Virus record (IMG/VR): IMGVR_UViG_2778261575_000007
Span: 1 to 19,849 of that record
DNA from: a virus
Taxonomy: Duplodnaviria; Heunggongvirae; Uroviricota; Caudoviricetes
Length of the DNA stretch: 19,849 bases
Reading direction: 5' to 3' (one strand)
Every line of letters begins with the position of its first letter. Within the stretch, counting starts at the first letter, position 1. A program made the position numbers. Below, in pieces: positions 3,001 to 6,000 of the stretch.

Positions 3001-6000
3001 GGGAACTGAAAGCCCGTATCACAGTTGCCAGCTACTTTAAGCCAATGTGTGCCGCGCTGGAGGCGTACCGGGCTGAACTGGGTAAAAACACTCTACAGCA
3101 CCACTACACCACGGAAGCCAATATGCTGGCGCGTATCGTGCTGGGTGGCATGACTGCAAAACAGTGGGCGCAGGCGAACGGCATCACAGGCGAACCACGC
3201 GACCACATGAGCACGTTGCAGCTTGAGCACCTTTCTTACCTTGAGCAGAGCAATATCACGCTGATTGAGTTAGGCCAGGACTACCACCAGCGGAAAGCTG
3301 AATTAATTCGTCTTTCGCAGCGTTGGTTAGCCCGTCGCATGGAGGAAAACAGCCATGTGTAACGTTCTGACCGTTACAAAAAGAGAAAGCGCCCCGTTGC
3401 CGGAGCGCCTTTGTGAACGAATAGCCTACTGCGCCATATTGCTTACTGTCTACGAGGCAGATTATAGCGTTGTGGTCGCACAGAGTGAAGGCGCTGATCA
3501 CCGTTACTACAGCACACCAGAAATGCAGAATATTTTGCTGCAAAATGCCGTTGGTCACGCTGTCCGGAGAGCAAAAAATTTTGCTGGTAGCGCGACTGAT
3601 ACGATTTTGTCAGGTCGCCAGGTGCTGACCAATCTGATGTCTGATTTCGTTCTGGATAAAACAAAGGCGACCGCAGAGGGCCACCAGTGGGAAAGCTACA
3701 CACTTGAACGCATCACCAACAATGCCAGATTTGCGGCTGGTGGGCAATGTGATCAGTGTGCTGGCTTGCTGGTGGGCTATTCCTGCTCTTTAACATTGCC
3801 ATGCCGCGATGTTTTCCAGGTATGCGACCCCATTTTTGTGCGCCTGTACTCTTTAAGGAATTTCTCAAGGATAAACGCACAGGGCGCGAATCTGTCTGAC
3901 TCATACTCGTACGCTATCTTTCTGCGCTGTCTTTTCCGTGCCGGTGATGGTGTATTGGTTGATTCTTTGTTGGTCATGGCGCTGCCCTGTAAAACGATGC
4001 ACCGTAGTTCCTCACACCACGGCGCTGGTGATGGTTACTCCTGTTCTTTGGCCTTGCGGCGCTGGAGTTCTTCACGCGCGACGGTGATGAGTTGCCCGAT
4101 CTCCTCGGCAGCTTTGACTCCGATTTTTTCCACCTGCGCCAGTGCATCGAGCGAAGAAACCAAGGGATTTTCTCCTCTTCCTTCTGCCTGGCGGCGGGCG
4201 ATCTCACCGCGCATGGCGGTTACGATGAATCCGGCGTTGCTTTCGCCGTCCAGTTTTACGGATTCCATGCCTTCAAAAGCATCATGTGGGATACGAATTG
4301 AAATCTGTTTTGATTTGTCGTTGATAGTGTTTTTTGCCATGTGCATTCTCCTAAACAAAAGATGTGATTCAGTATACACAAAAAAGAATCACAAAAAATA
4401 CTTGACCTGTGATTCAGTTAAATTTAATTTAAATCACACCTCGGTAAGAGGATGTAAACGACAACGCCCCGAACTGTTTGCGGCAGTAGCGGGGCGTCTA
4501 ACCAAACCGTTAAACGAGGTAACGATTATGGCTGGAACACAGCATACCCAAACTCACCCTAAATTTATATACACCTTCCTGGCGGTGCACCGTGATTGCA
4601 TCGCTGACGGTAAAAACACTGTACACATAGCCGCCGATACGCTGGTTGATGCCTGCGAGATGCTCAATGACATGGGCTATATCTCGGCAACATGGAAAGG
4701 GCGCGAAGAAAACACGCTGTTTATTCAGAAATGCGAAAACAATTTTATATGGCGTTTTATCGCCCTGAGCACAGCACAACCGCGTGTAATTCACATCGAG
4801 GCCACCAGCGAACAGGAAGCACGCCAGCAATCTCCTGATGGCTGCGTGATGGTATTCGCCGCCCGTATTCGCCAGGAGGTGGAGCATGTGTAATGCAACA
4901 TGGCCTGATGCAGCGGTAGACGCTATCAAAACGCTGATGGATTCACTTATTGAGATTTCTGCTATCGCTGGTGTGGCGCATAAACACGCAGCCAGAGAAT
5001 CAGAATGCATCTTCCATTATTTAGCATTTGTGCAGCTAAAAGCCGATCAGGCACTGGATAAGGCCGGAAAAATTATCATGGCTGATGTGCAGGAGGTGCA
5101 CCATGCATAACCTGTCAATTTCTGACCTTAACAGCATTCAGTTTGACGAGAAATTTACCGGGCAGTTGCTGGTCAATGTGGAGAACGGGCGCATAGTGCG
5201 TAATTATCACCTGCCGGATGGTGCAATTGCCGGAAGCGTTGAAGCATTGCTGGAACTGGCGGAACGTGTGCGACTGATTAAGCCGTCAACGAGCCATCAC
5301 GATGATGATCTGCATTTTACCGGACGTATGGTGAGTCACTACGAAAACGGCGTCGAGGTATCCTGCGAACGGCTGCGTGATGATTGCTGTTTCGGTACAC
5401 TGCCGGAATTTATCGAGTTGCTGACCAGTTGCGGTTATCAGGTCATTCAGGGGGGGAAACATGCGTGATGATCGTTTTAATTCCCTGAAACGGGAATTTG
5501 ATGGCGCACCGGAAGATGCAGCGGGCGCATTGTTGAGCGTTGCTGACATGATGAAAGCTGCATATTTTCTTATCAATACCAGTGGCTACAAGTCAGAGGG
5601 TGAAATGATTCTTAGTATTGCGTCGGACTATGCGGAATATGTGGCAGAGACGCGTTACAGAAGAAAATTCACGGAGGATGTAAGCCATGCATAATCATGA
5701 AGCGCATGTACCCGTAGTGCTTAATGTGCCAGATGATTTCACCGGACGCGTACTGGTTTACCTGGATAAAGGGAAAGTGAAATCACAATGCCGACTGAAA
5801 AGTAATGAGATTGTTGGTTCTCCTGAATTTTTTTCTGAACTTTATATTCGTGCGGAAATAAAACCGGAACTGCTGACAGGAAAATAAAACCATGAAAAAG
5901 AAAAATTCTGGCTTTACTGCCAGCGGTCTCTCTCGGCCTGAAATCAGACTCGGAGATATTTACCGCGACACCAGACGTGGGGGACGAGTGGTTATTCGTC

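Follow-up and report, generated by a model that had tools for sequence, protein, structure and literature searches.

We describe here a putative repressor-operator module in a stretch of 19,849 nucleotides (positions 1 to 19,849 of the IMG/VR virus record IMGVR_UViG_2778261575_000007; the window in what follows) that, judged by its gene order, is a phage-inducible chromosomal island (PICI) of the Gram-negative type. Four TGTGATT sites between two divergent genes are probably, with a probability of roughly 0.77, the operators of a protein of the YlcI/YnfO family, an Arc-like repressor encoded on one side of them that would hold down the replication operon on the other side and limit its own synthesis. 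The argument, computational throughout, is carried by the arrangement of the sites on two candidate promoters and by their covariation with the N-terminus of the protein across related islands.

The control region (4341-4527) lies between a leftward open reading frame (ORF) of 101 codons and a rightward ORF that starts at 4528. A repeat finder returned two 100% identical copies of TGTGATTCAGT (4363-4373 and 4408-4418), 45 bp apart, and two copies of AATCACA (4387-4393 and 4432-4438), likewise 45 bp apart. A first-pass annotation of this DNA had reported two direct and two inverted partial copies about 20-25 bp apart in a divergent control region, and this description holds: the centres of successive sites are 24, 21 and 24 bp apart, and the region is flanked by the YlcI/YnfO gene (4035-4340, minus strand) and an Icd-like ORF (4528-4893, plus strand). 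The units have to be redrawn, as the repeats are real but form two inverted repeats, each bracketing a -10 hexamer, and not mainly direct repeats. The first, O1, is a perfect inverted repeat of TGTGATTC (4363-4370) and GAATCACA (4386-4393) with 15 nt between the arms; the second, O2, pairs TGTGATT (4408-4414) with AATCACA (4432-4438) across 17 nt. On sequence grounds the two are very probably operators, with the following half-sites:

4363-4373: left half-site of O1, TGTGATTCAGT.
4386-4393: right half-site of O1, GAATCACA, inverted.
4408-4418: left half-site of O2, TGTGATTCAGT, abutting the -35 hexamer of the rightward promoter.
4431-4439: right half-site of O2, AAATCACAC, inverted; it covers the start predicted from the -10 hexamer at about 4436-4438.

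Four of the seven copies of TGTGATT on both strands of the 19.8-kb window fall inside these 76 bp. It is barely conceivable that this clustering arose by chance in an AT-rich intergenic region: complexity is indeed low here, but at least four copies of one 7-mer (counted on both strands, among 7-mers made of more than two letters) were reached in only 30 of 20,000 dinucleotide-preserving shuffles of 4341-4527, and the sites are kept in position and sequence in four genera while their flanks diverge.

The sites coincide with the hexamers of two candidate promoters, whose positions we compared in a set of 29 loci from about ten genera:

4402-4407, plus strand: -35 hexamer TTGACC of the rightward promoter PR, at an invariant position in the 29 loci.
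4425-4430, plus strand: -10 hexamer TAATTT of PR, after a 17-bp spacer; a TAnnnT hexamer lies 17-18 bp past TTGAC in nearly all loci.
4371-4376, minus strand: candidate leftward -10 hexamer TATACT, at the middle of O1; most operator classes retain a TATAnT-like hexamer there.

O2 fills the spacer, the -10 hexamer and +1 of PR, beginning one base past the -35 and ending over the predicted start (about 4437). The -35 hexamer reads TTGAC in 22 of the loci, TTGAA in 4, TTGTT in 2 and TTAAC in 1. A promoter scan of positions 3900-5000 of the window called no promoter, so the assignments in the window rest on conservation and on calls in relatives, where the scan did call the homologous promoter of a Photorhabdus locus (L006; TTGACG/17/TAATAT) and of the prototype Gram-negative PICI EcCICFT073 (TTGACG/18/TATAGT, 10/12). 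The leftward hexamer received no call from the scan tool; transcription from TATACT would give a repressor mRNA that begins about 24 nt ahead of the ATG, at about 4364, upstream of the GGAG of the gene. Because O2 starts right past the -35 and ends over the start site, steric repression of PR is expected: with protein sitting on O2 (4408-4439), RNA polymerase would be shut out and the Icd-like/primase operon, which serves replication, would stay silent. The -10 of what would be the repressor's own promoter lies between the arms of O1 (4363-4393), and occupation of O1 would make synthesis self-limiting. It is this geometry on the -10 hexamers and the start that leads us to read O2 as the silencer of the replication operon and O1 as autoregulatory. 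The protein could also bind the sites mainly as an activator or architectural factor, for instance boosting its own weak leftward promoter, given that this promoter has no -35, that the left site of O2 lies just beyond the place where one would be expected, and that the literature has no need of a repressor. We regard this as very unlikely, since the position of O2 on the PR spacer, -10 and +1 is that of classical steric repression and the arrangement is kept in every operator class.

An alignment of 28 homologues showed a well conserved body and an N-terminus that varies in discrete alleles (KQISIRIP, QLTTVRVP, QMTTLRVP, QQLNARFP, QSLTARIP and Q(L/M/V)KN(I/V)R(I/F)P) around an invariant Arg-x-Pro. 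If this N-terminal segment reads DNA, islands with the allele of the window are expected to carry TGTGATT even in distant hosts, and islands with another allele another repeat in the same places. Loci were picked by protein allele before their DNA was seen, via exact-protein look-ups (a genome-contig scan gave 12 loci). The layout was co-linear in all of them: counted from the repressor start codon, the sites lie near +25, +49, +70 and +94 and the -35 at +64. All 8 further loci with the (K/R)QISIR allele, among them Serratia L014, Edwardsiella L015 and L016, Klebsiella L017 and L018 and E. coli L032, have four TGTGATT sites. Loci with QL(T/F)TVR (E. coli, Xenorhabdus, Photorhabdus, Serratia) carry TGT(G/A)TTTC, those with QMTTLR carry TATATC/GAGATA, those with QQLNAR TGGTATTC, those with QSLTAR TGTAAG and those with KN alleles GTGTGTA/TACACAC; EcCICFT073 (QALKAR) has GTGGGCCACAC. 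Operators of the TGTGATTC and TGTGTTTC kinds, which go with strands bearing Q12/S14 and L12/T14 respectively, differ by one base per half-site. The matrix of motif counts by allele was nearly block-diagonal, apart from a few stray counts (1-2) in the KN pattern set, which was loosely defined.

This covariation of sites and strand allele over the 29 loci exceeds what linkage would give. The four sites of each locus are altered together to one new word, while the sequence between them (the TATACA core of O1, the A-tract and TTGAC) is unchanged across classes. Boundaries are sharp and mosaic: compared with E. coli islands of another allele, the C-terminal two-thirds of the repressor are 90-100% identical and the leader 80-100%, whereas the N-terminus and the operators reach only 40-60%; compared with islands of the same allele in other genera, operators are 93-100% and the N-terminus 87-90% identical, against 57-80% for the rest. 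Residues 1-20 of the repressor track the operator, with at least 80% identity in pairs with the same operator and at most 65% otherwise; the C-terminus does not track operator class, as its identity ranges overlap between same-operator and different-operator pairs. No other nearby gene tracks the class, neither the first rightward ORF nor the replicase type. Direct observation extends to the repeats, to the geometry that they keep across loci and to the way they covary with the N-terminus of the protein; judged from these sequences there are at least eight specificity types among related islands, in which the strand and the four sites appear to be exchanged together. Beyond this we infer that the protein binds, that it represses and does not activate, where transcription starts and in what stoichiometry the protein acts. 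Several loci have additional or unusual sites. In the Edwardsiella loci L015 and L016 a fifth half-site copy, TGTGATTCAG, lies inside the first leader hairpin about 20 nt past the predicted start, and L021 and L022 likewise have an extra fifth copy within this hairpin; such a copy may be a third operator. The first site of L027 is a 10-bp palindrome, TGTGTACACA.

The same comparisons bear on whether the repeats are bound by another regulator, for which AlpA, the Icd-like protein and host factors such as CRP come into question. TGTGA and TCACA are the words of CRP half-sites, the Icd-like family bears the PHROG label 'transcriptional repressor', and AlpA is the sole regulator of these islands with experimental support. 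Each candidate meets an obstacle. In CRP sites (TGTGA-N6-TCACA) the half-sites are 6 bp apart, and here the arms are 15 and 17 nt apart; nor would any host factor be compatible with a half-site sequence that varies among islands within the same host species. Klebsiella L018 has an unrelated AlpA (31-33% identity) with the same operator, whereas the AlpA proteins of L019 and L021 are identical over the first 30 residues and their operators differ. For the Icd-like protein, which shows no covariation with the operators, the DNA of the N-terminal region is 100% identical in the window and L027, yet the operators differ. We consider another regulator very unlikely. It is highly improbable that the repeats are instead replication iterons or a centromere-like site for the primase/replicase or for an RHH (ribbon-helix-helix) partition protein. 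They are regularly phased beside a replication operon, and one weak profile match of the YlcI/YnfO protein in the PDB, 3no7_A, is presumably a plasmid centromere-binding RHH protein; but the repeats do not covary with replicase type, they sit exactly on promoter hexamers, and the island annotation holds no ParA-type gene. PICI origins, moreover, lie downstream of pri-rep (PMC6092414).

The YlcI/YnfO protein is thus the best candidate by far for the factor that reads the sites, and is probably an Arc-like RHH protein, although fold matches remain below threshold. Its N-terminal domain of 42 residues (9-50) matches the NCBIfam family NF041551 (YlcI/YnfO) with 64.9 bits against a cutoff of 30; the PHROGs entry gives its function as unknown. 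The family comprises 72 clusters at 50% identity, and many members of 52-70 residues consist of the N-domain alone. The strand predicted to read DNA comprises residues 9-18 (KSKQISIRIP): the motif K-S-x-x-h-x-h-R-h-P-H-[DE]-h, kept in 60 aligned relatives, fits the RHH pattern of a first strand in which polar and hydrophobic residues alternate ahead of two helices, and h-x-h-R-h-P-x-[DE]-h is in register with FNLRWPREV of Arc. A direct alignment with Arc by hhalign gave E values of 0.002-0.003, yet probabilities of 9-13%. When a profile of 32 short members was compared with the PDB, three matches at E of at most 10 were obtained, all at E 0.3-1: two variants of the Arc repressor and 3no7_A, which we take to be an RHH protein. 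The Pfam family PSK_trans_fac was matched below threshold by 19 of 28 members (best E 0.001). Searches for the repressor by single sequence in the PDB, by Foldseek and in Pfam at threshold gave no match, and a protein search with the N-domain alone reached no annotated relatives. In the AlphaFold2 (AF2) monomer model residues 1-18 are extended, helices span 19-28 and 35-54 and a long helix follows; the strand cannot form in a monomer model. RHH proteins are obligate dimers that insert their paired strands into the major groove.

In the register of Arc, positions 12, 14 and 16 of the strand would face outwards. Of these, Arg16 never varies and 12 and 14 do so among alleles; every half-site starts with TGT or GTG. 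The residues at about positions 12 and 14, beside the invariant Arg16, may set the sequence that is read. Residues about 45-86 resemble a helix-hairpin-helix (HhH; match to Hef, 1x2i, E 0.004), and in the C-terminal half as a whole (residues about 45-101; window 4035-4200) this HhH-like part is followed by a long helix. One RHH dimer might occupy each site, with pairs of dimers joined, at a guess, through the C-terminal domain as in NikR. We found no paper on YlcI/YnfO function in the literature searched, many subscription papers lying outside its coverage, and a 2026 survey names YlcI/YnfO only as an accessory gene of capsid-forming PICIs (PMC13612085).

Several points weigh against repression by this protein. 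Published induction of Gram-negative PICIs relies on the activator AlpA and invokes no repressor (PMC6092414). The sigma70-like promoter that the first-pass annotation had placed over the repeats gains from O2 lying on PR and from a position kept in 29 loci, but PR scores 8/12 in the window, below the threshold of the promoter scan, and the leftward promoter has no recognisable -35 (ATTTTT, poor). Likewise its proposal of the RHH protein as the likely repressor is strengthened by the covariation in specificity and weakened by the fold, as every fold match falls below significance thresholds. The EcCICFT073 protein (59 aa; L030 12474-12653) has lost exactly the C-terminal part with the HhH-like domain, and O1 is degenerate there. 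The orientation pattern of the sites is different in KN-type alleles; in the KN-type loci L003, L005, L027, L028 and L031 the sites read GTGTGTA, GTGTGTA, TACACAC, TACACAC and do not alternate. Since a stretch of about 100 bp holds both the N-terminal codons and the operators, co-inheritance adds to their association, and a column-wise entropy test of slot versus non-slot columns in an ungapped alignment was marginal (p = 0.07), because of register shifts of 1-2 nt.

The genes around the control region and their signals are as follows:

4035-4340, minus strand: YlcI/YnfO-family gene, 101 aa, the putative Arc-like RHH repressor (ORF, NF041551 match, alignments).
4348-4351, minus strand: Shine-Dalgarno sequence GGAG of the repressor gene, 7 nt upstream of the ATG at 4340.
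3999-4025, minus strand: terminator-like hairpin directly 3' of the repressor stop codon, 10 pairs and then a T-rich tail.
4528-4893, plus strand: Icd-like ORF, 121 aa, the opening gene of the rightward replication operon (NF033153, 80.4 bits).

For the Icd-like gene the start at 4528 is favoured by the GAGG before it, by the conserved N-terminus and by the annotation of the 121-aa form in strain E189; the RefSeq (PGAP) start in E. coli APEC IMT5155 is the internal ATG at 4672 (73 aa). PHROGs 6196 and 1743, the entries of the Icd-like family labelled 'transcriptional repressor', are at odds with the NCBIfam name. A 66-aa ORF (3777-3977, minus strand) lies 3' of the repressor gene; it corresponds to phrog_21027, of unknown function, and is found only in some islands, including that of CFT073. 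Further terminator-like hairpins on the minus strand lie at 3386-3411 and 3666-3685. The former, with 11 pairs, lies directly past the antA stop and has a weak T-tail in the plus direction.

The neighbouring 66-aa gene allows for the RHH protein being the antitoxin of a pair, with the small ORF product as its toxin-like partner and the repeats serving to autoregulate this pair only. We judge this very unlikely: most loci that retain the operators and the RHH gene lack the small ORF, its product matches no toxin family, a terminator-like hairpin stands between the two genes, and O2 lies on the rightward promoter, where autoregulation would not require a site.

The stretch 3900-5000 (1.1 kb) is 99.9% identical to E. 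coli APEC IMT5155, in which the island adjoins tRNA-Thr and runs from integrase, a hypothetical gene, an AlpA-type helix-turn-helix gene and an AntA/AntB antirepressor gene through two leftward genes (a hypothetical one and a 'YlcI/YnfO family protein') to a rightward part with the Icd-like gene, several small ORFs, DUF4222, a D5-type primase, ProQ/FinO, PerC and cargo. Gram-negative PICIs of the EcCICFT073 type are recognised by the order int, alpA, a Bro/Ant zone and a primase replication module at a specific site, in about 10-17 kb; here int follows tRNA-Thr, and Phage_AlpA, AntA, the D5-type primase and PerC were all found. EcCICFT073 has the same core, with int, alpA, a leftward hypothetical gene and YlcI/YnfO, then Icd-like, DUF4222, primase and PerC. 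No capsid or terminase gene is present in the annotation of the IMT5155 island, and no sid, delta, psu or other P4-type late gene in the annotation of this identical island, in which not every ORF was scanned. By gene order the element is therefore a Gram-negative PICI and no P4, and the suggestion that a protein repressor would be a departure from P4 was the wrong comparison, because the element has PICI gene order and shares its module with EcCICFT073. Matches to some part of the 1.1-kb query around the module occur in 1329 of 5426 complete E. coli genomes, roughly a quarter.

Downstream of PR the predicted transcript opens with a structured leader:

4439-4451, plus strand: leader hairpin 1, the 5'-terminal hairpin of the PR transcript; other loci have a hairpin here too, with another sequence.
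4464-4497, plus strand: leader hairpin 2, ACGCCCCG...CGGGGCGT, inner stem (fold, covariation).
4498-4504, plus strand: CTAACCA, near-invariant, directly past hairpin 2.
4508-4524, plus strand: leader hairpin 3, CGTTA/TAACG, whose loop contains the Shine-Dalgarno sequence GAGG (4516-4519).

The 90-nt leader (4437-4527) folds as these three hairpins with z = -2.4. When 17 leaders were aligned, 87% of the cells of hairpins 2 and 3 were paired, compared with 29-40% in slid controls, and changes on both sides were seen in 9 of the 16 pairs of hairpins 2 and 3 and in 3 of the 4 pairs of hairpin 3; the covariation was counted on a hand-drawn structure, and RNAalifold on the raw leader alignment gave 7 pairs. 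C4/isrK-type RNAs are present in some other Gram-negative PICIs (PMC10111431). No C4, isrK or other credible RNA family came out of Rfam here, whether the entire window was searched at gathering scores or 4200-5000 at E of at most 10; a match to the R1162 antisense RNA (E 1.5) was taken as chance. A remnant of the leader and a truncated Icd-like ORF was found in the nin region of the lambdoid phage mEp460, where L033 (mEp460_ev081) 2470-2581 holds hairpin 2, a CTGACCA box, the Shine-Dalgarno hairpin and 15 Icd-like codons followed by a stop. It is unannotated and lies upstream of the mokW/rem cluster and the Q gene; the same leader/Icd-like remnant occurs in Morganella phage IME1369_01 and Klebsiella phage P12620-1.

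The module is crossed by a further feature that is genuinely odd:

3355-4893, plus strand: stop-free bridging frame of 512 codons, by its start translationally coupled to the upstream rightward gene (ORF list, relatives, shuffles).

Its ATG overlaps the antA stop (ATGTGTAA) with GGAGG 8 nt upstream, and from there it runs antisense to both leftward genes and through the whole control region, to join the Icd-like ORF in the same frame. The third codon positions of the bridging frame fall on those of the repressor gene. The EcCICFT073 counterpart has 428 codons and begins 53 nt past alpA (L030 11767-13053). Among 28 loci, 18 have a frame of 285-520 codons continuous with the first rightward gene, in 6 it is in another frame and ends 7-17 nt before the ATG of that gene, in 2 it ends within the 5' end of the repressor gene and in 2 there is none. 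In most loci the first ATG of the frame lies across or directly next to the stop codon of the rightward gene before it, and it usually follows a purine-rich stretch. The remaining two frames are broken every 19-109 codons. The intergenic part was left open in 0.7-2.8% of shuffles per locus, while the antisense openness of the repressor gene itself was not significant (18-54% of synonymous shuffles open). We rejected the 512-codon frame as a real protein, which would have overturned the view of the control region as intergenic, its translation being rich in S, C, L and R and the frame interrupted or shifted in 10 of the 28 loci. Apart from a Bro-N remnant at the CFT073 N-terminus the translation gave no family match, and because it resembles antisense junk we do not think that it encodes a functional domain. 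The hairpin at 3386-3411 is kept in CFT073, where it encodes a bridging-frame peptide, SAPLPERLCE, that is common to both islands. The 101-aa repressor has no tyrosine and the family has almost none (alignments A1 and A3); Tyr codons would make stops in the antisense frame, but the scarcity may be coincidence.

As a working idea, the bridging frame might keep ribosomes on a read-through transcript of the alpA/antA operon, so that AlpA-driven transcription could pass over the repressor cassette and reach the replication operon without being terminated by Rho. This leads us to speculate, as a tentative and rather doubtful extension, that Gram-negative PICIs have their missing master repressor in the YlcI/YnfO protein, with at least eight exchangeable specificity types, and that induction occurs when AlpA-driven read-through, shielded by ribosomes, crosses the operators with the repressor still on them, silences the repressor gene and bypasses PR. 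Gram-positive PICIs hinge on a master repressor that is inactivated by helper phages, and for Gram-negative ones the existence of a repressor is called 'unclear' (PMC6092414). When the reporter primers of Fillol-Salom et al. were mapped on CFT073, the longest construct fell about 270 nt short of the YlcI/YnfO stop codon and about 450 nt short of the control region; because it does not reach the gene, the module was outside those assays.

RHH repressors with promoter-overlapping operators and exchangeable specificity are a well known kind of system; as a component of Gram-negative PICIs the module appears to be undescribed. PICIs spread virulence and defence genes, and if our reading is correct a conserved repressor-operator module beside the replication operon would supply a missing layer in the control of the Gram-negative ones. 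It would bring a testable specificity code (strand residues 12/14 versus the bases after TGT), could explain how related islands coexist without cross-repression, and could be used in engineering PICI-based delivery vehicles, while the bridging frame suggests a route for AlpA to override the repressor. The control region might then be called an immunity switch, as the first-pass annotation had done.

In the immI region of phage P22 the RHH repressors Arc and Mnt act at the back-to-back promoters Pant and Pmnt. The present module resembles immI in its putative small RHH repressor divergent from the controlled operon, in operators that lie over the hexamers of two back-to-back promoters with presumed autoregulation, in the antirepressor-family gene nearby and in an N-terminal strand motif in register with Arc. 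It differs from Arc in that no significant sequence homology is shown, in the extra HhH-like C-terminal domain, in that the controlled operon is a satellite replication module and not ant, and in spacing: Arc subsites are about one helical turn apart, and the half-sites here are 24 bp apart and bracket a -10. Such spacing may recall NikR-type tetramers more than Arc. The NikR tetramer binds two half-sites about two helical turns apart, as in the E. coli nik operator GTATGA-N16-TCATAC. Short inverted half-sites 15-17 bp apart over a promoter are shared with NikR and would imply two RHH dimers spaced by a C-terminal oligomerisation domain; unlike in NikR, this domain is of an unrelated kind (long helix or HhH-like) with no sign of a metal site. 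As with Stl/Rpr of the staphylococcal pathogenicity islands (SaPIs; PMC6092414), the repressor gene is divergent from a satellite excision/replication operon and its presumed role is island quiescence; unlike Stl/Rpr, the protein is of another family and int and alpA are not co-transcribed with the repressor. With a master repressor of the Stl/Rpr kind, removal lets the island replicate and a helper-phage protein brings relief; the likeness here lies in the divergent position. The Icd-like ORF as the first gene after a structured leader is reminiscent of the P4 CI RNA and of C4 RNA-icd-ant of P1, but there is no Rfam match to C4 or isrK here and the covarying control element is a protein-operator pair. 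Finally, the discrete specificity types, with the reading part and the operators moving as a mosaic block flanked by sequence common to the types, recall lambdoid immunity regions, from which the module is set apart by its putative RHH strand in place of a helix-turn-helix, by having two operators only and by its place in a satellite, not a phage.

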